Shown: positions 2,490 through 58,743 of the stretch, piece after piece
Layout: every line of letters begins with the position of its first letter
Numbering within the stretch: the first letter of the stretch is position 1
NCBI GenBank assembly: GCA_963743885.1
Contig: CAVURJ010000001.1
Location: 279,488 to 343,487, forward strand
DNA: 64,000 bases
Direction: 5' to 3'
Source of the DNA: Candidatus Moraniibacteriota bacterium
Lineage (GTDB): Bacteria; Patescibacteriota; Minisyncoccia; Moranbacterales; UBA1568
Made by a program: the position numbers and the translations under genes
Notes under the pieces: model-generated
The model's database searches: none
The model's input: the letters and a program-made list of their open reading frames with translations, nothing else
What the model was told of the DNA's origin: nothing

Positions 2490-2561
2490 GCGGGTATCGT
2501 ATAATGGTTCTTATGTCAGCCTTCCAAGCTGAAGATGGGGGTTCGATTCCCCCTACCCGCT
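2490..2561 (+). tRNA. tRNA-Gly (anticodon TCC)
   Basis: Acceptor GCGGGTA/TACCCGC, anticodon stem TCAGC/GCTGA with loop CTTCCAA, T-arm GGGGG-TTCGATT-CCCCC. The D-stem is imperfect. Confidence 0.7.
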
Positions 2562-2566
2562 CTAGT

Positions 2567-2609
2567 AAAGTAAAAAGAATGGTCTCGTGCCATTCTTTTT
2601 ACTTTTTAG
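2567..2609 (+). terminator. Hairpin downstream of tRNA-Gly (terminator-like)
   Basis: aaagtaaaaagaatgg-tctcgtg-ccattctttttacttt is a perfect 16 bp stem followed by T residues. The same structure with compensatory changes follows the second tRNA-Gly (11378-11420). Confidence 0.55.
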
Positions 2610-2729
2610 CGGTAGGGGGGGGAATCGAAGGGCGCGAGGAGGATTTTGGTTGCCCGCCCAATCGATATAACAGTCCATAAGCGGCTGTTTTTTGTTCGCC
2701 CGGCAGTCGGGTATAATGATGGTGCGACT

Positions 2730-4563: not shown

Positions 4564-7107
4564 ATGTTGTGGAAGAGATTCGCATCGTATGATGCGGAAA
4601 GCTCGCTTGCTGAGCTCCAATCGTCGGTCGATGGGCTGTCGGAGGAATCCGTCCGGAGTCGGTTTTTGACGTTTGGAAAGAATGAGCTGGGCGGTAAGAA
4701 GTCATTCATCTACGAGGCCTTGCGTCGCCGCTTCAAGTCGTCGTTCCTCTACCTCTTGCTCGCTGCTGCCGTACTGGCGCTCTTTCTTGGGGATCGCCTT
4801 GATGCTCTCTTGATCGCCTTGTTCGTGGCAATCAATATTGGTCTCGAGACGTATCAGGAATATCGCTCTGAGCGATCGGCAGAGCTGCTCAAGAAATATC
4901 TCATCGTACGGGTGCGTGTCAGGCGTGATGGCCGTATGGTGATGACGGAAGGGAAGAACATCGTCCCGGGCGATATTGTGCTCGTGGAACCAGGTGACCG
5001 TCTGCCAGCTGATATCCGTTTTATCAAATCTGACGGCATCGAGGTGGATGAGAGCGTTATGACCGGTGAGTCCGTCGCTGTCGCGAAGACCGCCGATTCG
5101 CCGGACGTGCCACCGACAGAGATGTATGAGGCGGTGAATATCGGCTTTGCGGGGACCATCGTGACAGCGGGGCGTGGCGAGGGAGTGGTTTTTGCGACGG
5201 GCAAGGAGATGGCGCTTGGCGATATTGTTACGCTGACCGAGGGGACCGACCGTGAGACGGTTTTTGAGAAGGGTATGGCCCGGTTTAGCCGCTTTCTGGT
5301 GCGTCTGGTACTCCTGACGCTCACGATTATCTTTCTTGCGAATATCTTCATCAAGGGTGATGGGGCCGATCATATCGAACTCCTCGTCTTCTCGATCGCG
5401 CTTGCGGTCTCGGTGGTACCGGAGGCACTGCCGCTCGTCATGACGGTCTCCTTGTCACGCGGAGCTGTTCGTCTGGCGCAGAAGAAGGTCGTCGTGAAAC
5501 GACTCTCGGCTATTGAGGATCTCGGGAGTATCGAAGTGCTCTGTACCGACAAGACAGGGACGCTGACAGAAAACATGCTTTCCGTCGTTGATGTGCTCGC
5601 GCCCGATCGCGCAGCTTGTCTCACGGCAGCGTTTCAGGCTTCTCTTGAGGTGCCTGAGACGCGTGCTCATCTGCATGACGCTTTTGATTTGGCGCTCTTT
5701 CAGTCCTTGTCGGCCGATGAGCGGATGGTGGCGCTCGAGAAAGAGCGGATTGGGAGTATCCCGTTTGATCCGGAGCGTCGGCGCAACAGTGTGTTTGTCC
5801 AAGGCGGAAATGAACGCGCCATTATCGTGCGCGGAGCACCGGAAGAGATATTCCGTCTCTCGCATGGCATGGACCGGTATACCAGGATGCAGGCGACAGA
5901 ATTCGTAGCTGCTGCTGGGCGAAAGGGGCAGCGTGTCATCGCAGTTGCTTCAAGGCAGCTGCATACCGATGAGAAATGTACGGCGTATAGTGAGCAGAAT
6001 CTTGCGTTTCTCGGATTGATTGCTTTTTCTGATACGCTCAAGAAGACGGCCAAGCGGACCATTGCTGAGGCGCGCTCGCTCAACGTCGCGGTCAAGATTT
6101 TGACCGGTGATAGCCGCGAGGTGGCTGGCTCTGTCGGCTACGCCATCGGGCTGATTGATGACCCGGAGAAGGTGTTCACGGGTAAGGAGCTCGATGAGAT
6201 GCCGTACGAGGAGCGTCGCGACGCGGTTTTTTCTGGCTCTGTCTTTGCTCGTGTCTCGCCGCAGCAGAAGCACGATATCATCAAGCTGCTCCAGGAGCGC
6301 TACGGAGTCGGATTTCTTGGGGAGGGGATCAACGATGCGCCGGCGCTCAAGCTGGCGGATGTCGCTATCGTAGTGGATAGTGCTTCCGATATCGCTCGTG
6401 AGACGGCGGATGTCGTGCTGCTCCAAAAGAGCCTTGAGGCGCTCATCGATGGGATCCGGGAGGGGCGTTCTATCTTTGCCAATATTCTCAAGTATCTCAA
6501 GATCACGCTGACATCCAATTTTGGCAATTTCTATTCCGTCGCGCTCGCATCGCTCCTTCTGCCATTCGTGCCGCTTTTGCCGGTGCAGATTCTTCTCCTC
6601 AATCTTCTTTCGGATTTTCCGATGATTGCTATCGCGACCGACACCGTGGACAAGGCCGAGCTTGACCGACCGAAGAGCTACCAGATGCACACAGTGATCT
6701 ACCTGACGACGCTTTTTGGTGTCGTGAGCTCAGTCTTCGACTTTATGCTCTTTGGATATTTCTACCGCATTTCTCCGGAGGCACTCCAGACGGCTTGGTT
6801 TATGCTTTCTGTTATCACCGAGGTTGTGCTCATCTTTTCGCTTCGCACCAGCTTCGCCTTCTTCAAGGCCCGTCGTCCGTCCTTTGCGCTTATGTTCTTT
6901 TCATTCACGGCGCTCCTCATCGCGGTGGTGCTGCCGTTTACGTCGTTGGGCCAGGTGCTCCACTTTGCGCGCCTCGAGACGAGCTCACTCATCTTTATCG
7001 GCTGTTTGGCTGCCGGCTATTTCATGGTGACTGAGCTGGTCAAGCACATGTACGAGCGGCACCTGCGCCAGTCGCGCCGGGACGTTGCCGATCCGGTTGC
7101 CGCGTGA
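4564..7107 (+). CDS. Cation-transporting P-type ATPase (P2/P3-type, Mg2+/Ca2+-like)
   Basis: DKTGTLT phosphorylation motif, TGDS, GEGINDAPALKLADV hinge motif, multiple TM segments. Confidence 0.85.
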   Translation: MLWKRFASYDAESSLAELQSSVDGLSEESVRSRFLTFGKNELGGKKSFIYEALRRRFKSSFLYLLLAAAVLALFLGDRLDALLIALFVAINIGLETYQEYRSERSAELLKKYLIVRVRVRRDGRMVMTEGKNIVPGDIVLVEPGDRLPADIRFIKSDGIEVDESVMTGESVAVAKTADSPDVPPTEMYEAVNIGFAGTIVTAGRGEGVVFATGKEMALGDIVTLTEGTDRETVFEKGMARFSRFLVRLVLLTLTIIFLANIFIKGDGADHIELLVFSIALAVSVVPEALPLVMTVSLSRGAVRLAQKKVVVKRLSAIEDLGSIEVLCTDKTGTLTENMLSVVDVLAPDRAACLTAAFQASLEVPETRAHLHDAFDLALFQSLSADERMVALEKERIGSIPFDPERRRNSVFVQGGNERAIIVRGAPEEIFRLSHGMDRYTRMQATEFVAAAGRKGQRVIAVASRQLHTDEKCTAYSEQNLAFLGLIAFSDTLKKTAKRTIAEARSLNVAVKILTGDSREVAGSVGYAIGLIDDPEKVFTGKELDEMPYEERRDAVFSGSVFARVSPQQKHDIIKLLQERYGVGFLGEGINDAPALKLADVAIVVDSASDIARETADVVLLQKSLEALIDGIREGRSIFANILKYLKITLTSNFGNFYSVALASLLLPFVPLLPVQILLLNLLSDFPMIAIATDTVDKAELDRPKSYQMHTVIYLTTLFGVVSSVFDFMLFGYFYRISPEALQTAWFMLSVITEVVLIFSLRTSFAFFKARRPSFALMFFSFTALLIAVVLPFTSLGQVLHFARLETSSLIFIGCLAAGYFMVTELVKHMYERHLRQSRRDVADPVAA

Positions 7108-11205: not shown

Positions 11206-11302
11206 GATAGAAAAGATGAATGGTAAGACATTTCCTAGTCTATCATTGAGAGCCTTTACAGGGAAGCCTTCTGGGCGCTACAATGGGTTCCGTCGGATGA
11301 AA

Positions 11303-11373
11303 GCGGGTATAGTATAGTGGTAATACGTGACCTTCCCAAGGTTAAGCGACGGGTTCGATTCCCGTTACCCGCT
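11303..11373 (+). tRNA. tRNA-Gly (anticodon CCC)
   Basis: Acceptor GCGGGTA/TACCCGC, D-stem GTAT/ATAC, anticodon stem TGACC/GGTTA with loop TTCCCAA, T-arm ACGGG-TTCGATT-CCCGT. Confidence 0.85.
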
Positions 11374-11636
11374 CTAGTGAAGCAAAGAGAAGTGGTCTTC
11401 TGCCACTTCCCTTTGCTTTTTAGGGGTAATGGGAATCGAAGGGCGCGAGTCGGATGCGAGTGAACGAGCATCCTGTGTGTAGCGCCCAGGCTCCGAGTCG
11501 GAGCGAGGAGGATTCCCGTATCTCGCTCAAGACTAGTATATCAATGAGGCGGGTTGGATTTTTACCCGCCTCTGGCGGGCCCGTTACCCGCTCATAAGAA
11601 TAAAAGACCCTGGCTTATTCCGGGTCTTTTGTTTTT

Positions 11637-13610
11637 TCATATCCCATTCAACCAGGCGTTGATCTGCGCGTTGATCCGCATGAAGAGATCGCTCGTGGGA
11701 CTTTTTTCGGTTTTGGATGATTCGGTGATGGCTGGCGTGACAGGAACGGAGTCGTGTGGCGTATAGGCGATTGCTCTCGGCATCTTGAGACTGAGACCGT
11801 AGCTCAAGAGATCTGAGAGCTGTGGCCGGTCAGGATCGTCGGTCATCAGATCGTTCCTGATGACAGCGGGATGTGGAACCGACTCTTCTTCTGGGAGCGG
11901 CGCTTCTGGTCCGGTAGGGGAAGCTGTTTCTTCGGTTGGCATCTCTGTCATGGCGCCGGCCACTGCCGCCTCTTGTTCATCATTCTCATTCTCTTGTCTC
12001 CCACTTGTTGTCCCATGTTTCCTGCTCGTTGTTCCTTGTTCACTGATAGTAAGTTTCCACTTCTCGCCTTTCTTCTTGATGTAGACAGCGTCTTCGGGCG
12101 CTGATTTTTCGAGCTTGTACTTGATTTCTTGCAGGACCTCGCCGTCCGGTGCGCGGAGTTCGATCTTGCCTTTCTCATTTGGTAGCGTGAAGAGTGAATA
12201 CTCTCGAGTAAGCCGAGCAGAGGATTTCGGCGGGATGATGAAGCTTTCGCGGACAGGGTGGTTGGCGAGTTTCTTCCAACCGGTCGCGATACCGAAGCCC
12301 TTGAGGTCGGCAGGCTTTTTCTTTTCGCGGTTCTCGATCAAGATCCATTCGCTGTCAGTGTCTTTGCCATCGGGGTTGGGGATGAAGGAGACGATGCGGA
12401 CATCCGGAGCCTCATAGGAGACGATCTTGATCGTGAATGTCTCGAGAGTATCATCACTGCCGTCGGAGACCGTGAGCGTGACGGTGTATTCGCCGTTCTT
12501 CTCGTAGGTATGCGAAGTCTCTGCCTTGTAGCTCTTGTGGCCGTCGCCGAAGTCCCATGTGTATTTGAGCTTGTCCTTGTCGGCATCCTTGCCTTTGGCA
12601 GCCATGGCGACTGGCATACCTTTGTAGCCTTTCTTCGGTACTTTTTCTTTCGTCGTTGGCAGATTGTTCAGGATATTGGCTGCTCCGGGCGTCGGCGTGC
12701 CGCCGCGCCAGCCGGAGGAAGTGTAGTTGAGTGAGACGTTCTCTTTCGTTTTGCTATAGCAGATTTCATGCACGATGACTTTGCTTTTGTCTATGAGAGT
12801 GATTCGATTGCCGCCGTCATCATTGAGTGATATTTCGTCTTTTAAGGCGAAATATCCGTGGCTAGCTATATTCCCGTCAGTTTCGAGAAAGACGTATGTG
12901 TCATTTTTGTCCTTAAGAGTAAATCCCCGTAGAGGGACCGCGTCTTTTCCGGGGTTGTAGAGTTCTACGAATTCCTCGAAGTCTTTTTTGGGGTGGGGCA
13001 GAAATTCGCTGATGCGAATAGTATCTGATTGCGGATTTGTCACGCAGTATGGTCGAGGGGTGTAGAGGATACCTTTGCTGTTGGTTGGAGTTGGAATATC
13101 AGTGATGGACCAGAGTAATGTTGTTATGTCGCGGATTAGGCTTTGGCCATCTCTCGGACTATTTGGAAAATTAAAATAAGAGGTATCGAACGGGGATGTG
13201 CTTTCCCATGATACAGAATCGATGATGGTATCACCCGATTTTTTCGGCGGAAGAAGAGCGAGACTGTATTTTTCAGAGAGGCCGTTTCCGGTCTTCGCAT
13301 CTGACATATCAGCGTAGACGCTATCGCTTCTAGCCCAGAGAAAGTATCCTTTTTCCGGTATGGTTGATCCTGATGTGAATTGGACGAGAGAATCTTCTTT
13401 CCCGGCGCTATTTTTTACGCGCAGGCGATAGCCAGTGATATCTTTTTTAGAATCATCTGGATTGTAAAGCTCAACGAAGTCATCGCTCGAGCTGTCTTCG
13501 CTGCCGATCTGGATCTCACTGATGATGATATCTGGTCCGGAAGCTCTGGCACCGGATGCGGTGAAGGCGATGAGGACCGCGAATGCGAGCAGATTTCTTT
13601 TTGTCTGCAT
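11637..13610 (-). CDS. Secreted surface protein with lamin-tail (LTD) domains and a PKD domain
   Basis: Signal peptide. Two IISEI..VELYNP LTD-like segments; YTWDFGDGHKSYKAETSHTYEKNGEYTVTLTVSD PKD motif. Terminator aagaccctggcttattccgggtctttt downstream. Confidence 0.65.
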   Translation of the reverse strand: MQTKRNLLAFAVLIAFTASGARASGPDIIISEIQIGSEDSSSDDFVELYNPDDSKKDITGYRLRVKNSAGKEDSLVQFTSGSTIPEKGYFLWARSDSVYADMSDAKTGNGLSEKYSLALLPPKKSGDTIIDSVSWESTSPFDTSYFNFPNSPRDGQSLIRDITTLLWSITDIPTPTNSKGILYTPRPYCVTNPQSDTIRISEFLPHPKKDFEEFVELYNPGKDAVPLRGFTLKDKNDTYVFLETDGNIASHGYFALKDEISLNDDGGNRITLIDKSKVIVHEICYSKTKENVSLNYTSSGWRGGTPTPGAANILNNLPTTKEKVPKKGYKGMPVAMAAKGKDADKDKLKYTWDFGDGHKSYKAETSHTYEKNGEYTVTLTVSDGSDDTLETFTIKIVSYEAPDVRIVSFIPNPDGKDTDSEWILIENREKKKPADLKGFGIATGWKKLANHPVRESFIIPPKSSARLTREYSLFTLPNEKGKIELRAPDGEVLQEIKYKLEKSAPEDAVYIKKKGEKWKLTISEQGTTSRKHGTTSGRQENENDEQEAAVAGAMTEMPTEETASPTGPEAPLPEEESVPHPAVIRNDLMTDDPDRPQLSDLLSYGLSLKMPRAIAYTPHDSVPVTPAITESSKTEKSPTSDLFMRINAQINAWLNGI

Positions 13611-50338: not shown

Positions 50339-50524
50339 GGTAACCCTCTCAAATCTCACCGCCTGTTATGACTCAAAAAGAGCTTGTCCGAAAAAACCAT
50401 CTCCGTTCCGGCTGCAAAATCCGAAAAGCTTGTCGGGTTATCACTGATAGCCCTTTGCGTTTTTCGACTTTTTCGCTCGAAACGGAGATGGTTTTTTCTG
50501 GACATGAGATTTGAGAGAGTTACC
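50339..50524 (+). repeat. 186 bp element with ~20 bp terminal inverted repeats, directly upstream of ftsA (copy 1)
   Basis: Termini ggtaaccctctcaaatctca ... tgagatttgagagagttacc. Internal inverted repeat aaaaccatctccgtt / aacggagatggtttt. 85-90% identical to 51790-51975. Confidence 0.8.
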
Positions 50525-50528
50525 ACCT

Positions 50529-51788
50529 ATGGCCAAAGGGCATTATCACATCGGTCTGGATATCGGATCAGCCAACACCCGTGCCGTCATCGCGCAAGAG
50601 ATTGCCGATGATGAGCTTTTGCGTGTCGTTGGTGTCGGTACCGCGCCTTCGTCCGGGATGCGTCGCGGCGCGGTCGTTGATGCTGAAGCAGTCGCTAAGG
50701 TCTGCAATGAAGTGCTCGAGCATGCGGAGCGCATGGCGGGACATCCGGCTGAGAGCGTGACCGTGAGCGTGACTGGGGCCGAGATCGCCTGTCAGGATGC
50801 GCTTGGTGTCGTCGCGGTTGGCCGCGCCGATGGCGAGGTGACCGAAGACGATATGTCGCGTGCCTTCGAGGAAGTGCAGGCGCGGCTCGTCCTGCCGCTC
50901 AATCAGGAGATCATCCATGTCGTGCCGAAGGATTATCGGCTCGATGACCAGAAGAATATCAAGGATCCGCTCGGCATGCGCGGTGTCCGGCTCGAGATGA
51001 ACGCGTTCGTCGTGACAGGGAGCGCTTCGCACCTCAAGAATCTTTCACGCAGTCTGGAACAGGCCGGCACGTCACCGGATAGCTTCGTTGTTGAGCCGCT
51101 CGCTTGCGCGGAATCAGTGCTCCATCGCAAGCAGAAGGAGCTTGGGACAGCGATCATCAATATCGGCGGTGCCACGACATCACTTGCGGTATATGAGGAT
51201 GGCGATTTGCTCCATCTGGCGGTTTTCCCGGTCGGTGGCGACCACATCACGAACGATATCGCCATCGGACTCCGCACGTCGATCGAGGTAGCGGAAGCGG
51301 TCAAGCTGCAGTATGGCAGTGCGATCTCTGATGATATCGCTAAGAAGGAAGAGATCGACCTCAACCTCTTTGATACGCACGAGGAAGGATCTGTTTCCCG
51401 TCGACACGTCGCGGAGATCATCGAGGCGCGCCTCGAGGAGATTTTCCTCTTCGTCAATGCGTCGCTCAAGGAAATCGGCCGCGAAGGTTTGCTTCCGGGC
51501 GGTGTCATCCTGACGGGTGGGGGTGCACTTCTGCCAGGTATCGTTGAGCTCGCGAAGGATACGCTCAGACTGCCGGCGCAGATCGGATATCCGAAGCCAC
51601 TGGGTGGCATCCTGGACCAGGTGGACAGCCCGTCATTCGCGACCGTGATTGGTCTTGTACTGCTCGCAAGAAATACCCATGTCTCTTCGAAAGGATTCTC
51701 GTCCCAGAAGGTCTGGAACAAGATGCCAGAGGGGATGCAGGGTGCGATCGAGAAGCTGAAGCACTGGTCAAAACGGTTCCTGCCGTGA
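50529..51788 (+). CDS. ftsA: Cell division protein FtsA
   Basis: Actin-like ATPase. HIGLDIGSANTRAVIA phosphate-1 motif and FtsA-specific domain architecture. Start set at ATG 50529, outside the repeat. Confidence 0.85.
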   Translation: MAKGHYHIGLDIGSANTRAVIAQEIADDELLRVVGVGTAPSSGMRRGAVVDAEAVAKVCNEVLEHAERMAGHPAESVTVSVTGAEIACQDALGVVAVGRADGEVTEDDMSRAFEEVQARLVLPLNQEIIHVVPKDYRLDDQKNIKDPLGMRGVRLEMNAFVVTGSASHLKNLSRSLEQAGTSPDSFVVEPLACAESVLHRKQKELGTAIINIGGATTSLAVYEDGDLLHLAVFPVGGDHITNDIAIGLRTSIEVAEAVKLQYGSAISDDIAKKEEIDLNLFDTHEEGSVSRRHVAEIIEARLEEIFLFVNASLKEIGREGLLPGGVILTGGGALLPGIVELAKDTLRLPAQIGYPKPLGGILDQVDSPSFATVIGLVLLARNTHVSSKGFSSQKVWNKMPEGMQGAIEKLKHWSKRFLP

Positions 51789-51789
51789 G

Positions 51790-51975
51790 TAACTCTCTCA
51801 AAATCTCACCGCCAGTTACAAGTCGAAGAATGCTTGTCTGTAAAAATCACTCCCGTTCCGGCTGCAAAATCCGAAAAGCTTGTCGGGTTATTGCTAATAG
51901 CCCTTCGCACTTTTCGACTTTTTCGCTCGAAACGTGAATGATTTTTTCTAGACATGAGATTTTGAGAGAGTTACC
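51790..51975 (+). repeat. 186 bp element with terminal inverted repeats (copy 2), between ftsA and ftsZ
   Basis: gtaactctctcaaaatctca ... tgagattttgagagagttacc. Same orientation and length as copy 1. Confidence 0.8.
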
Positions 51976-52184
51976 GAGCGGATTTTTCCAAACACAGAAA
52001 CAGACACTTTTCCCTTATCAGAGCCTCGTTTCTTGACGAGAGGACTTTTTCGCTGCCATTGACATCGTATCTCCGCGTATGATACAGTGGACAGTCAAGA
52101 AGGCCTGGAGCTTTGTCAGAGCTTCGCGGTGGATGTAGAATAGCTGTACGGCATTTTTTTGTAACCAACCTTAAGGGGACACAT

Positions 52185-53414
52185 ATGGCGGAGATCAAGC
52201 CTGATATCGAGACGTTTGCGAAGATCAAGGTGGTCGGTGTCGGCGGATCAGGCGGCAACGGCGTAGCGCGGATGGTGGATGCCAAGATCAAGGGCGTCGA
52301 GTTCGTCGCTATCAACACGGATGCGCAGGCACTCCACAATTCGAAGGCACAGGAGAAGATCCATATCGGTAAGAACCTGACGAAGGGTCTTGGTGCTGGT
52401 ATGAATCCGGAGATCGGACGTCAGGCAGCCGAAGAGAATCGCGATGAGATCCAGGAAGTACTGAAGGGTGCTGATATGGTATTCGTCACCTGCGGTCTCG
52501 GTGGTGGTACTGGATCTGGTGCGGCTCCGATCGTTGCAGAGACAGCCAAGGAGCTCGGCGCACTCACCGTTGGTGTCGTGACCAAGCCGTTCGCATTTGA
52601 AGGTTCGCAGCGTCGCGCGATCGCCGAAGAAGCGCTCGAGAATCTCAAGGACCGCGTCGACACGCTCATCACTATTCCGAACGACAAACTGCTTTCCATC
52701 ATCGATCGCAAGACAACCCTCGTGAATGCCTTCCGCATCGTCGATGATGTGCTCCGCCAGGGCGTGCAGGGCATCTCTGACCTCATCACTAAGCCGGGCA
52801 TCGTCAATGTCGACTTTGCTGACGTGCGTGCCATCATGGAAGATAGCGGCAGCGCTCTTATGGGCATCGGCATCGCAGCTGGTGAGAACCGTGCAGTCGA
52901 GGCGGCCAAGGCGGCCATCAACAGCCCGCTTCTTGAGCTTTCGATCGATGGTGCGAAGGGTGTCCTCTTCAATATCTCCGGTTCGAGCGACCTCACGATG
53001 CTTGAGATCAACGAAGCGGCCAATATCATCACTGAGAATATCGATCCAAATGCCAAGGTTATCTTCGGTGCTGTGACCGACGACCAGATCCGCAAGGGCG
53101 AGGTCCAGATCACAGTTGTCGCGACTGGTTTCGACCTGCCGCGCGCGAAGGAGCCGGTCGGGCTCATCAACCGCTCGACGACGGTCGCACACACGCGGAC
53201 AGTCTCGACCCCGATGGCTGATGAGATGATTCGCGATGAGGAGATCTTCGAGGAGACAATCGCTTTCCCGTCGAGGAAGATGGAACAGCCGGCGATGATC
53301 ATCGAGGAGAAGATCCAGCCGCGCACCGCCGCTTCGCGTGTCGAGACAAAGGAGCTCGCCGAAGAGGACGATCTCGAGATTCCGGCGTTCATCCGCCGCA
53401 AGATGAAGAAGTAA
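52185..53414 (+). CDS. ftsZ: Cell division protein FtsZ
   Basis: GGGTGSG tubulin signature, NTDAQAL, T7 loop. AAGGGGAC SD before ATG 52185. Confidence 0.95.
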
Positions 53415-58483: not shown

Positions 58484-58554
58484 CGGGTTGTAGTATACTG
58501 GTAGTACGCGTCCATGGGGTGGATGTAGACCGGGTTCGATTCCCGGCAGCCCGA
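58484..58554 (+). tRNA. tRNA-Pro (anticodon GGG)
   Basis: Acceptor CGGGTTG/CAGCCCG, D-stem GTAT/GTAC, anticodon stem CGTCC/GGATG with loop ATGGGGT, T-arm CCGGG-TTCGATT-CCCGG. Confidence 0.75.
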
Positions 58555-58639
58555 CTTGGTATAAATGCCAAAAAGGAGTTCAAGGCTGGGGGGCGAAAAG
58601 TGAACTGCTTCACTTTTTGCGGGTATCCCCGCAAGACGT

Positions 58640-58695
58640 CCTTGTCTTGCGGAAAGAGGATACCCCGGAACTTGTAGTTCGGGTTCGATTCCCGA
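58640..58695 (+). other. tRNA 3'-half-like fragment (T-arm plus acceptor 3' strand), with no 5' half
   Basis: gtagttcgggttcgattcccgataccccgac parallels the tRNA-Pro 3' end gtagaccgggttcgattcccggcagcccgac. No matching 5' acceptor strand upstream. Confidence 0.45.
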
Positions 58696-58743
58696 TACCC
58701 CGACAAAAAGAAGAACAAGAAAACCGAAACAAAAGATGTTTTT

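Follow-up and report, generated by a model that had tools for sequence, protein, structure and literature searches.

Genomic islands and prophages of the T-loop class use the 3' part of a tRNA gene as their target, and the stretch from the T-loop to the tRNA end is reportedly the identity block of T-loop-class integrases, as Williams is said to have described in 2002. An integrase lineage normally keeps one target. To our knowledge, Patescibacteria have tiny genomes with few recognised mobile elements or regulatory RNAs. The introns reported in Patescibacteria tRNA genes are group I introns, located at 35/36 in the anticodon loop (PMC13011429). The elements described here share with the T-loop islands and prophages the 3' tRNA target, the intact tRNA, the direct repeat from the T-loop to the 3' end, the arrays, and the presence or absence at a given site. 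However, these islands and prophages, including tycheposons and cis-mobilisable elements, are kilobases in size, while the element is 110-160 bp and has no integrase inside or nearby. In addition, the element has one core at ≥ 31 tRNA species, an extra inverted copy of the T-loop, and RNA-like covariation. We found no description of it in the literature on its sequence, Patescibacteria tRNA motifs, partial tRNAs or tycheposons; the family is apparently undescribed.

The window, which is the whole 64,000-nt stretch of DNA that was analysed, contains two copies of this element, each behind a tRNA-Gly gene on the plus strand (Table 1). The original prediction had placed a hairpin and an inverted copy of the tRNA 3' end behind tRNA-Gly(TCC), and all of its sequence statements about this site were correct. 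The same architecture is present behind tRNA-Gly(CCC), as had been noted, with an inverted arm that pairs with its own tRNA. The resemblance is not a chance one, in that the shared 18-mer GGAATCGAAGGGCGCGAG occurs at these two places only, against 0.13 matches expected. Folding of the tRNA with its trailer gave z = −4.6 at locus 1 and −9.5 at locus 2 relative to shuffles. The unit is larger than first seen, containing a ~70-nt core and, at locus 2, direct copies of the tRNA 3' end.

Table 1 Features of the two element-bearing tRNA-Gly loci in the window.
Locus	Feature	Position	Strand	Evidence
1	tRNA-Gly(TCC), host gene	2490-2562	+	ARAGORN; Rfam tRNA, 63.9 bits
1	Perfect 16-bp A-rich/T-rich hairpin, 7-nt loop TCTCGTG	2567-2582 / 2590-2605	+	Inverted-repeat search, fold
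1	Left arm GCGGTAGGGGGGGGAATCGAA, inverted tRNA copy (T54, T-stem 3' strand, acceptor 3' strand)	2609-2629	+	
1	Core remnant, GGGCGCGAG joined to GAGGATT	2630-2645	+	k-mer map, alignment with locus 2
1	Decayed right arm (tail), GATT-TTGGT-TGCCCGCC	2642-2658	+	Alignment, direct reading
1	Closing terminator-like hairpin and T-run	2669-2695	+	
2	Promoter-like site of tRNA-Gly(CCC): TTTACA, 18 nt, TACAAT	11255-11284	+	
2	tRNA-Gly(CCC), host gene	11303-11374	+	ARAGORN; Rfam
2	Terminator-like hairpin, 16-17 bp, loop TCTTCTG	11380-11395 / 11403-11418	+	Paralogous to 2567-2605
2	Left arm GGGGTAATGGGAATCGAA, inverted copy of tRNA T54 to C70; 5' strand of closing helix P1	11423-11440	+	
2	Intact conserved core	11441-11510	+	Covariance-model match 11424-11524, 112.5 bits, E = 3e-31
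2	Right arm (tail) GATTCCCGTATCTCGCT, direct copy of tRNA G57 to N73, slightly decayed	11511-11527	+	Direct-repeat search
2	Hairpin GAGGCGGGT...ACCCGCCTC, then perfect 13-nt direct copy of the tRNA 3' end	11546-11592	+	
2	Closing terminator-like hairpin and T-run	11596-11636	+	

At locus 2 the element (11423-11527) is intact and ~100 nt long. Its core consists of P2 (GGGCGC/GCGCCC), an internal loop (GAG / GUGUGUA), the variable hairpin P3, and P4, which reads CUCC-GA-G[UCGGAG]C-GA-GGAG; the first 7-9 nt of the right arm form the 3' strand of P1. The inverted arm (11424-11440) is paired with 11354-11370 of the tRNA over 17 nt (94%), and the sole mismatch is a G.U on the tRNA strand. A second copy of the tRNA 3' end, CCCGTTACCCGCT, is located further downstream (11580-11592), and the hairpin-containing segment that it ends looks like either a core-less remnant of another cassette or the original tRNA end. 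The promoter-like site of the tRNA is the only one upstream of the element on the same strand, and GCTACAAT is kept in the orthologue of the relative L024. A 12-nt complementarity between 11271-11282 and 11478-11489, which half-overlaps the conserved −10 box, is probably fortuitous.

Locus 1 carries the same cassette (2609-2658) with 58 nt of the core missing. The missing part is equivalent to 11450-11507 and lies between two GCGAG repeats. The gggcgcgag and gaggatt of the original prediction are the two ends of the conserved core. The covariance model scores this locus at 6.8 bits (E = 7), compared with 112.5 bits for the intact locus 2, and did not retrieve it as a significant copy. The tail is homologous to that of locus 2 and has lost its match to the tRNA. 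The arms copy the tRNA-Gly(TCC) stretch from T54 to the 3' end (2542-2561): the last 12 nt of the left arm are complementary at 12/12 positions to the T-loop and T-stem 3' strand (2542-2553), and by direct reading the complementarity extends into and along the acceptor 3' strand if three inserted Gs and one missing G are allowed for. CTAGT directly follows the tRNA and TTAG separates the hairpin from the left arm. The hairpin (2567-2605) is the centre of a long palindrome (2542-2629); its homologues are the locus 2 hairpin and the one at the orthologous position in L031. The simple terminator scan, which flags the locus 2 hairpin at 11389-11409 (inner 8 bp and T-rich tail), did not flag this one, since its perfect stem is AT-rich with too few G-C pairs.

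The module recurs behind other tRNA genes in related genomes, as the original prediction had proposed to check. An 18-mer scan of genomes found 35 tRNA-linked copies in MAGs, mostly titled Patescibacteria, all within ~230 nt of a tRNA and mostly within 85 nt. A relaxed metagenome scan found at least 130 non-identical copies, at least 111 of them with a tRNA called upstream, and the host tRNAs include at least 31 anticodon species among the metagenome matches listed. The core, GAAGGGCGCGAG...GTGTGTAGCGCCC...GAGTCGGAGCGAGGAG, is highly conserved in lineages titled Moran-, Uhr-, Kerfeld-, Veblen- and Saccharibacteria, and copies from both core scans are all short and linked to tRNAs; the invariance of P2 and the limits of the family are partly made by the searches because both required exact core words. 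Some of the MAG titles among the element carriers are other than Patescibacteria. At gathering score, Rfam 15 reported tRNA alone over the whole window and no family for the core. At E ≤ 10 over 11250-11660 it gave spurious miRNA and leader matches over the hairpin and nothing over the core.

The family has a common layout. The tRNA is usually followed, ~2 nt past its end, by a terminator-like hairpin and then by a ~12-nt spacer. The left arm comes next and is the reverse complement of the host T-loop and of the ~2-5 nt that begin the T-stem 3' strand. The ~70-nt core then leads into the right arm, which repeats the host tRNA sequence in direct orientation from G57 up to the 3' end and is followed by a second terminator. 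The element starts at a fairly constant distance behind the tRNA (median 54 nt), and the interval between the tRNA end repeats is ~110-160 bp in all of at least ~150 copies. Since the arms pair as P1, the element resembles a tRNA T-stem with its loop swapped for the core, followed by the acceptor 3' strand.

Both arms follow the host tRNA. The 6 nt preceding GAAGGGC are the reverse complement of the local T-loop, whichever its variant (GGATTC in at least 35 copies, GGAATC in at least 31, GGATTT in at least 11, and others). Identity to the own flank rather than a shuffled one is 0.79 versus 0.52 at position 10 and 0.62 versus 0.27 at position 11, and across 22 genome loci the paired positions numbered 194, against 158 ± 7.7 under permutation. 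The claim that the inverted segment tracks its own tRNA thus extends from the two window loci to the family. Its usual reach is shorter, however: the inverted segment as a rule covers only the T-loop and ~4 nt of the T-stem, with a perfect run from T54 of typically 9-12 nt among the matches listed, while the 17-21 nt of the window are exceptional. At the G.U positions of the T-stem, the left arm agrees with the complement of the 3' strand in 18 cases and with the 5' strand in 7; on this count we discarded the idea that the left arm directly duplicates the T-stem 5' strand, as in a minihelix made by deletion. We also rejected an origin of the inverted segment from a minus-strand tRNA or pseudogene: no T-stem can be built from the sequences flanking the inverted T-loop, neither ARAGORN nor Rfam reports anything at this place, and the plus strand is the one indicated by the G.U bias.

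On the right side, the direct repeat from G57 spans 17-21 nt in most copies, among the matches listed, and reaches the tRNA end, stopping at N73 or at CCA. In about two thirds of the copies the tail still matches the tRNA exactly, although most copies have two unrelated terminators; this suggests that the tail is maintained rather than left as an insertion scar. The second terminator duplicates the first in 9/59 copies, which removes duplication as a general account of it. The CCA of the tail is no sign of copying from mature tRNA, the discordant cases being symmetric (9 versus 10).

The core folds on the tRNA-sense strand as a three-way junction, in which the loops are invariant and the helices covary, and the ~70 nt are conserved in > 150 copies. 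The helix cells are paired in 96.6% of cases, compared with 81.2 ± 0.5 in shuffles and 34-63% when the partners are slid, and two-sided changes occupy 300 cells against 74 ± 6.5 in shuffles. Covariation is seen in P1, P3 and P4, and P1 is 91% paired. G.U pairs outnumber A.C mismatches 22 to 7 in P3 and P4, a count that comes from non-independent sequences, whereas P1 has no G.U bias (14 to 18). With a terminator-like hairpin upstream in most copies and no promoter of its own seen, this bias is the one observation that points to transcription of the element. The bias is also consistent with a folded single DNA strand of tRNA sense. The core subtypes track lineage more than tRNA type.

The hairpin between the tRNA and the element needs a separate reading. 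The original prediction had called it co-varying, and its differences between the two loci are indeed largely compensatory: three of them affect both strands of the stem (T-A to C-G, A-T to G-C, and a G-C pair gained by insertion) and one affects a single strand. To conclude function from co-variation at two loci was too strong for this hairpin, because a terminator-like A-tract, stem and T-tract would stay paired anyway and the loci are paralogous copies of a cassette. In the family the hairpin starts at a median of 2 nt past the tRNA end and has a median of 18 pairs and −20 kcal/mol, and a crude count finds a T-run of ≥ 4 at its 3' foot in only 27/79 copies. We infer that it is a terminator-like structure separating tRNA and element. 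The hairpin loop is centred on the interval from T54 to the left-arm end, with a median offset of 0 and ≤ 3 nt in 61/79 copies. Over the family as a whole, pairing with the acceptor part does not rise above background, nor does complementarity past ~position 14 from either anchor, so a full palindrome was rejected as the general state. In the window, the exceptional length of the inverted copy probably arises because the tRNA end, the hairpin and the left arm form one long quasi-palindrome. Template switching at quasi-palindromes is an established mutational process, and the long inverted copy probably reflects homogenisation of the two palindrome arms. In this process the arms would be homogenised by intrastrand template switching with the tRNA arm fixed by selection.

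Comparison of relatives reveals that the element is a dispensable insertion whose placement varies. In the syntenic relative L024, the orthologous tRNA-Gly(TCC) has an empty site. In L038 the order is tRNA-Lys, element, terminator-D, while in L030 it is tRNA-Lys, terminator-D, element, and within one tRNA cluster the element is behind tRNA-Trp in L050 and behind tRNA-Glu in L035 and L072. Tandem arrays are present in five of the sequences, and internally deleted copies are found at window locus 1 and at ~1760-1800 of L035. Copies on the same contig at different tRNAs have similarities of 0.87 and 0.83, against a median of 0.69. Of the roles offered in the original prediction, a recombination or attachment structure came nearer, in that the insertion is bounded by tRNA 3' end repeats. 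No integrase, transposase or other recombinase was found by Pfam among 146 ORFs within 3 kb of 36 copies, where the matches were only to housekeeping families, and the neighbours of the window tRNAs are likewise housekeeping families with no integrase. Our scans found no autonomous partner and no excised form.

From these observations, we favour with moderate confidence the view that both loci are copies in a large family of small non-autonomous insertion elements anchored to tRNA T-loops. The element may spread through a left arm that recognises the near-universal T-loop sequence, and the copy of the local tRNA 3' end could be supplied by the insertion event or by later gene conversion. Transcription would start at the tRNA promoter and read through into the element. 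That the core is so highly conserved between lineages with streamlined genomes is as compatible with an RNA useful to its host as with a selfish element.

A further reading, which we put forward tentatively and with considerable doubt, is a mobile RNA or single-stranded DNA that has no protein gene and homes to tRNA genes by base pairing, or a variant of it in which the tail serves as a cellular guide or tRNA mimic in Patescibacteria. In homing, the left arm would read the T-loop and the local tRNA 3' end would become the element's own 3' tail, gained possibly by a self-templating or fold-back reaction or by a host or unlinked enzyme, with the core as a catalytic or protein-binding scaffold.

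Instead of moving, the core might be transcribed with the tRNA as part of a resident family of small RNA genes beneficial to the host, an explanation that we consider unlikely. Since the arms mimic the T-stem and the acceptor 3' strand with discriminator and CCA, RNase P, RNase Z and the CCA-adding enzyme could mature or stabilise such an RNA. The extreme conservation of the core, the covarying helices, the G.U bias on the tRNA strand and subtypes that go by lineage more than by tRNA type all agree with it, as do tails that end at N73 or CCA and match the tRNA though the flanking terminators have diverged, and the presence in streamlined genomes beside housekeeping genes. A resident gene is nevertheless hard to reconcile with an element that is dispensable at an orthologous site, varies in position within one tRNA cluster, and exists in arrays and internally deleted copies; it gives no reason to re-make the arms for at least 31 tRNA species, and most copies lie just past a terminator-like hairpin with no visible promoter. 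In an alternative form of the resident-RNA explanation, the tail pairs with some partner.

The copies could also be attL/attR scars of T-loop-class integrase islands or prophages, the core being an att-flanking arm that stayed when the island was lost, or a cis-mobilisable remnant. As at such att sites, a direct repeat from G57 to the tRNA 3' end is present at both ends (in the window, at 11511-11527 and 11580-11592), partial tRNA ends form arrays, and the first tRNA end copy often has its own terminator, with CCA encoding discordant between this copy and the tail in 10 versus 9 cases. We nevertheless judge this origin quite improbable. The inserts have the same 110-160 bp interval in at least ~150 copies, rather than a kilobase-sized island, and no recurring recombinase; a scan of viral contigs with the 18-mer gave one chance match, inside a coding region. 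The inverted arm is left unexplained, and one core sits at at least 31 tRNA species. Furthermore, we know of no integrase arm sites with hairpin covariation or G.U bias.

The original prediction had also offered a cis-acting trailer that controls tRNA termination or pre-tRNA 3' processing. In such a model, the T-arm and acceptor strand of the read-through RNA would be sequestered by the inverted segment. The terminator-like hairpins suit this role, and in the window the inverted arm pairs with the tRNA itself (17/17, one G.U) better than with the decayed tails; the long hairpin dominates the predicted fold of the read-through RNA. Such a dedicated function is very unlikely, however, given that only some tRNAs have the module. 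The orthologous tRNA-Gly(TCC) in L024 and tRNA-Pro(TGG) in the window lack it, its position shifts among neighbouring tRNAs of relatives, and locus 1 is decayed, being a deletion derivative. Moreover, the arm in the family covers only the T-loop and ~4 nt, and the conserved core would have no role. Finally, neutral DNA, with palindromes grown around terminators by template switching and the rest chance similarity, is consistent with the midpoint position of the hairpin loop and with the long, tRNA-following inverted copy in the window, but it is refuted as a complete explanation by the conserved core with its covarying helices and invariant loops, the direct tail and the background-level acceptor complementarity, and survives only for the extra length of the inverted arm here.

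In summary, more than 100 distinct copies of a ~100-nt folded element were recovered from genomes and metagenomes behind at least 31 anticodon species. If it is mobile, it has a way to target the 9 nt of tRNA genes that are most conserved while leaving the genes intact, and could account for part of the 'partial tRNA' clutter in Patescibacteria genomes; if it is a working RNA, it is among the best conserved unannotated RNAs of the phylum. The covariance model from this analysis can be used for annotating the family.

Among the systems beyond the T-loop islands, guide RNAs such as the EBS/IBS of group II introns, the TnpB omega-RNA and the homing crRNA of type V-K CRISPR-associated transposons directed at tRNA genes share with the element a scaffold joined to a target-matching stretch. 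Here this stretch consists of a left arm whose 9-12 nt can pair with the T-loop and a 3' tail of 17-21 nt that has the same sequence as the tRNA end. The element differs in that it has no adjacent effector, its scaffold is much smaller and unrelated by Rfam, and its 'guide' is identical to an intact gene in the same genome. A group I intron fold takes 200 nt or more. A tRNA intron was rejected for the element, which has a complete tRNA upstream, a core of ~70 nt and no group I match. Hammerhead, twister, hatchet, HDV-like, K-turn and SRP RNAs, as we know them and as represented in Rfam, do not fit all junctions, and neither do the ends of IS200/IS605, IS91 (target GTTC) or casposon-type duplications as known to us.

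The tRNA-like ends of tmRNA, YrlA and viral RNAs, and the small RNAs from tRNA trailers (3' ETS), resemble the element in its P1 and tail, which are like a T-stem, acceptor 3' strand and discriminator, often with CCA. Being co-oriented with the tRNA and just behind it, the element could come from the tRNA transcript. Unlike these tRNA-like ends, however, the element has no T-loop because the core replaces it, and the sequence that does the mimicking varies from one host tRNA to another; the left arm stops short of the acceptor part in most copies, which also lack a partner for the acceptor 5' strand position. At the elements, ARAGORN found no tmRNA and no extra tRNA, and the Rfam tRNA, tmRNA and Y-RNA-like models had no match.

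MITEs (Correia, REP/BIME and the PATEs of IS200/IS605) are likewise ~100 nt, non-coding and multicopy, with inverted ends that pair, intergenic positions near terminators, and decayed copies. Their ends are constant, however, whereas those of the element are copies of the T-loop variant and T-stem of the host, so that the arms vary with the T-loop; the flanks just outside the arms do not repeat each other directly. MITEs also have a short target-site duplication at both ends, while the right end of the element is a 17-21-nt copy of the tRNA end. We know of no matching transposase. The attC sites of integrons provide an analogy only, with an imperfect palindrome that has conserved outer boxes (in the element TTCGATTCC / GGAATCGAA), is variable inside and alternates with cargo in arrays, the cargo here being the cores; in both, structure is conserved more than sequence. 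In contrast to an integron, which has an integrase, an attI and a promoter platform that are absent here, the cargo of the element is a conserved non-coding core and its palindrome is built from the tRNA gene.

The two-locus pattern behind the tRNA-Gly genes is real, and it is the visible edge of a larger element family. The original prediction described a hairpin and an inverted tRNA end behind tRNA-Gly(TCC) (locus 1); this description is exact, and coordinates and repeats confirm that the layout recurs behind tRNA-Gly(CCC) (locus 2). At locus 1, the last 12 nt of GCGGTAGGGGGGGGAATCGAA are a perfect complement of the T-loop and T-stem 3' strand of the tRNA (2542-2553), and at locus 2 the inverted arm (11424-11440) pairs with the tRNA (11354-11370) over 17 nt with one G.U. 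Three two-sided changes distinguish the hairpins of the two loci. The 18-mer GGAATCGAAGGGCGCGAG is common to both loci and occurs nowhere else in the window, where 0.13 matches are expected by chance. Folding of the trailers, proposed as a check, gave structures much stronger than shuffles at both loci (z = -4.6 and -9.5).

The real unit is larger than the hairpin and inverted segment. At locus 2, GGAATCGAAGGGCGCGAG starts a ~70-nt core that ends in GAGGAGGATT and lies between a left arm, which is the inverted tRNA end of the original prediction, and a right arm or tail, a direct copy of the tRNA 3' end. A covariance model built from relatives found a single full copy in the window (11424-11524, 112.5 bits) and did not recover locus 1 as a significant copy (6.8 bits, E = 7). 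Locus 1 corresponds to the locus 2 cassette minus 58 nt between two GCGAG repeats, the absent part matching 11450-11507; therefore, the segments 'gggcgcgag' and 'gaggatt' noted earlier are the two stumps of a deleted core. The homology between the loci extends past the tail, and locus 1, the copy in which the pattern was noticed, is a dead copy.

Coordinates of the features in the window and layout of the predicted fold
Feature	Position	Sequence or remark
tRNA-Pro(TGG)	117-188	one of four tRNA genes in the window
tRNA-Gly(TCC)	2490-2562	one of four tRNA genes in the window
tRNA-Gly(CCC)	11303-11374	one of four tRNA genes in the window
tRNA-Pro(GGG)	58484-58555	one of four tRNA genes in the window
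Locus 1, order 3' of tRNA-Gly(TCC)		CTAGT, hairpin, TTAG, GCGGTAGGGGGGGGAATCGAA, GGGCGCGAGGAGGATT
Locus 1 hairpin	2567-2582 / 2590-2605	perfect, 16 bp
Locus 1 inverted segment	2609-2629	GCGGTAGGGGGGGGAATCGAA
Locus 2 hairpin	11380-11395 / 11403-11418	layout as at locus 1
Locus 2 direct tRNA copy, G57 to N73	11511-11527	slightly decayed
Locus 2 second direct copy of tRNA end	11580-11592	13 nt, perfect
P1		left arm / tail, e.g. GGGAATC / GATTCCC
J1/2		GAA
P2		GGGCGC / GCGCCC
Internal loop		GAG opposite GUGUGUA
P3		variable hairpin; apex usually GAG-NNNN-CGA
P4		CUCC-GA-G[UCGGAG]C-GA-GGAG; two tandem G-A juxtapositions, invariant hexaloop

Two further observations concern locus 2. The tail is separated from the second tRNA-end copy (11528-11592) by 52 nt that contain a separate hairpin and an ACTAGT motif and look like the remains of a further cassette that lacks the core. 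The leader of tRNA-Gly(CCC) (11271-11282, overlapping the -10 box GCTACAAT) shows perfect 12-nt complementarity to the conserved core GUAGCGCCCAG (11478-11489), and the predicted fold of the whole transcript uses this pairing; it may be fortuitous because half of it is a conserved promoter.

The module was sought in related genomes, as had been suggested, by searching the GGAATCGAAGGGCGCGAG 18-mer in one genome per species. The scan returned 86 loci; ~50 are chance matches within G+C-rich genes, and the remaining 35 lie directly 3' of a tRNA gene in MAGs, titled mostly as Patescibacteria (Moranbacteria, Uhrbacteria, Kerfeldbacteria, Veblenbacteria, Saccharibacteria and Parcubacteria), with other titles in a few cases. 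Metagenomes, scanned with a core-only pattern (GAAGGGCGCGAG..AGCGCCC..GTCGGAGC), gave at least 120 loci, and pooling both scans yielded at least 130 non-identical copies. Among the matches listed, 111 of 130 non-identical copies have a same-strand upstream tRNA, and at least 31 anticodon species host them: Trp, Met, four Ser, Tyr, two Lys, two Glu, two Gln, Asn, Ile, three Ala, three Gly, three Leu, His, two Pro, Arg, Asp and Val.

The arms take their sequence from the host tRNA. Six variable bases stand immediately before GAAGGGC (GGATTC in 35 copies, GGAATC in 31, GGATTT in 11, then AGATTC, GGACTC, GGAATT and others), and in every case they reverse-complement the T-loop variant present in the tRNA that hosts the copy, so that the tracking of each tRNA by its inverted segment, first noted at the two loci, holds family-wide. 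Counted from T54, perfect inversion usually extends over 9-12 nt and never beyond 15 nt. Left-arm identity is higher to the own tRNA than to the tRNAs of other copies at positions 10 (0.79 vs 0.52), 11 (0.62 vs 0.27) and 13 (0.47 vs 0.27), and it falls to background past approximately position 14; in a permutation test on 22 genome copies, 194 positions were paired vs 158 ± 7.7. At G.U pairs of the T-stem, the left arm agrees in 18 cases with the complement of the 3' strand and in 7 cases with the 5' strand itself; therefore, we read it as an inverted copy or complement of the 3' strand and rejected a 5'-strand copy. The right arm is a 17-21-nt repeat of the tRNA that starts at G57 and ends at N73/C74 or CCA; it is longer where the entire trailer is duplicated. 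In 17 metagenome copies (e.g. L111, L119, L130 and L148), the left arm reads ...CGAGAA, which is not the exact T-loop complement, and the T-stem part still matches; these copies mostly follow tRNAs with a TTCGAGTCC-type T-loop and may form a sub-family in which P1 contains a G-A juxtaposition.

The core is conserved, and its folded strand is the tRNA-sense one. Two-sided changes occur at 10 of the 24 predicted pairs in 23 genome copies. Across 90 distinct metagenome copies, standard pairs fill 96.6% of cells (81.2 ± 0.5 in shuffles, 34-63% with slid partners), and both sides change in 300 cells vs 74 ± 6.5 in shuffles. Covariation is present in P1, P3 and P4; P2 is invariant, but it was required by the search pattern. 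G.U outnumbers A.C by 22 to 7 in P3 and P4, which points to the tRNA-sense strand as the folded one, although the relatedness of the sequences makes this bias suggestive and not a formal test; P1 shows no bias (14 to 18).

Other core types follow the same arm logic (inverted T-loop, then GGGC..., with the tRNA-end copy last), and thus the family is wider than the searched pattern. They were seen at L031 1750-2330 (-), L043 6880-7090, L044 7660-7810, L030 4180-4420 (-) and L038. The 'C' core is ~150 nt long (GGGCAGAAGCGAG...GCTGCCC...CGA-GACGCC-AACA-GGCGTC-GAG); 'B' and 'D' cores also exist, and these types are intermixed with the main type in arrays.

Comparison of sites shows that the element is an insertion, dispensable and variable in position, and no linked enzyme was found among the ORFs close to the copies. 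L024, a relative syntenic with the window (Pro-TGG, Gly-TCC, Gly-CCC in the same order; DUF4012 protein beside tRNA-Gly(CCC) 64% identical), has a filled Gly-CCC site, and its Gly-TCC runs directly into the next gene with neither hairpin nor element. In L031, titled Moraniibacteriota, the tRNA-Gly(TCC) site (neighbouring oxidoreductase 46% identical to the window's) carries an inverted arm, a homologue of the window hairpin and a three-element array with two different cores. L038 reads tRNA-Lys / element / terminator-D and its relative L030 tRNA-Lys / terminator-D / element. In the Thr-Tyr-Thr-Trp-Glu cluster, the element lies behind Trp in L050 and behind Glu in L035 and L072, its tail always from the tRNA directly upstream. 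Tandem arrays and internally deleted copies are common, and copies behind different tRNAs on one contig are more similar (0.87 and 0.83) than the family median (0.69). At L043 6650-7095, a tRNA-Glu 5' part (1-53) is followed by a terminator hairpin, two elements and, last, the matching 3' ends; the first T-loop-to-3'-end copy is precisely missing and ARAGORN calls no tRNA. Either the gene is disrupted or the assembly is in error here.

The hairpin between tRNA and element is ordinary. In 79 copies with a tRNA-element spacing of 35-100 nt, it has a median of 18 pairs and -20 kcal/mol, starts a median of 2 nt past the tRNA and stops a median of 12 nt ahead of P1. Its A-tract / stem / T-tract resembles a bidirectional terminator, and a second such hairpin lies 3' of the tail; 9 of 59 copies carry a clearly duplicated pair, in some cases diverged by compensatory changes, and in the rest the two hairpins are unrelated. 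Approximately 20 copies lack the hairpin, the element beginning 3-29 nt after the tRNA, and it is therefore not an obligatory part. The co-variation of the two window hairpins had been taken to imply function; this is too strong, since a terminator role together with shared ancestry would suffice to explain the paired state at both loci. Midway between T54 and the left-arm end sits the hairpin loop (median offset 0; ≤3 nt in 61 of 79 copies), as though the entire stretch had formerly been palindromic, although the acceptor part shows no complementarity in most copies. On one contig, the tRNA-Glu hairpins of L011 (~2240-2280) and L072 (~4745-4785) are identical with the loop inverted (ATGATGATTCC vs GGAATCATCAT); the entire palindrome is flipped.

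The inverted copy in the window, 17-21 nt, is the long end of the arm rule. At both loci the left arm is far closer to the tRNA itself than to the decayed tails, and both share the same mid-palindrome asymmetry (CTAGTR left, TAAAA right); therefore, a single cassette gave rise to both loci, and each arm later changed in its T-stem part to match its tRNA. Together, the tRNA end, the hairpin and the left arm make up a quasi-palindrome whose arms span 40 bp. Arms of this kind become alike through intrastrand template switching, an established mutational process. Here it would homogenise the arms and, with the tRNA arm under selection, the other arm would follow, which would account for the tracking in the window with no function for the extra pairing.

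Three other structures were noticed in the window. A degenerate tRNA-Gly(TCC) copy (2340-2430), 150 nt upstream of the real gene (5' part 80% and anticodon region 95% identical), has an 18-nt hairpin, CCGCCGGAGGCGGGTAAA, inserted ahead of the anticodon loop, lacks the T-loop and acceptor 3' strand, and is uncalled by ARAGORN and Rfam; the orthologous spacer in L024 is only ~30 nt. Behind tRNA-Pro(GGG) (58556-58705), a terminator-like hairpin (58593-58620) precedes a nested hairpin (GGGTATCC...GGATACCC), and 58673-58704 copies the last 32 nt of the tRNA (84% identical, full T-arm included); this is a partial-tRNA structure of a different kind, and it does not match the element core (only 7.5 bits from the covariance model). 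Two ~160-nt intergenic stretches (50360-50520 and 51810-51970), ~85% identical and each upstream of an ORF (50511-51788 and 52113-53414, similar in size), gave weak minus-strand matches to the covariance model (14.3 and 11.6 bits) and are unrelated to the element.

We consider it rather probable that this is a non-autonomous element whose left arm would recognise the nearly universal T-loop, whose right arm would be a gained or retained copy of the local tRNA 3' end, and whose transcription would start at the strong tRNA promoter and read through. Promoter-like sites are predicted upstream of both tRNA-Gly genes and none before the element. The rival that fares best is a resident useful small RNA borrowing tRNA-like ends for its maturation: the tail is identical to the tRNA in approximately two thirds of the copies despite diverged neighbouring terminators, favouring some role for the tail, whereas the empty and shifted sites count against this rival. 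Classical integrase scars are less likely: we found no recurrent recombinase or transposase family among 146 ORFs within 3 kb of 36 copies, and the window neighbours are housekeeping genes. We found no scheme yielding one inverted and one direct target copy; schemes based on template switching, hairpin-capped ends, guide RNA or att sites each account for part of the junctions and not for others. Processing or termination control, as originally proposed, is unlikely, as the orthologous tRNA-Gly(TCC) of L024 lacks the module and the conserved core would have no role in it. Neutral palindromes alone are the least likely reading and would not account for the conserved, folded core.

In summary, the element family is of considerably greater interest than could be expected from the pattern at two loci. 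Rfam 15 holds no matching family even at E ≤ 10 and the sequence was not found in the literature searched, so that, as far as these searches reach, no published description was found. The tRNA introns described in Patescibacteria are group I introns in the anticodon loop (PMC13011429).
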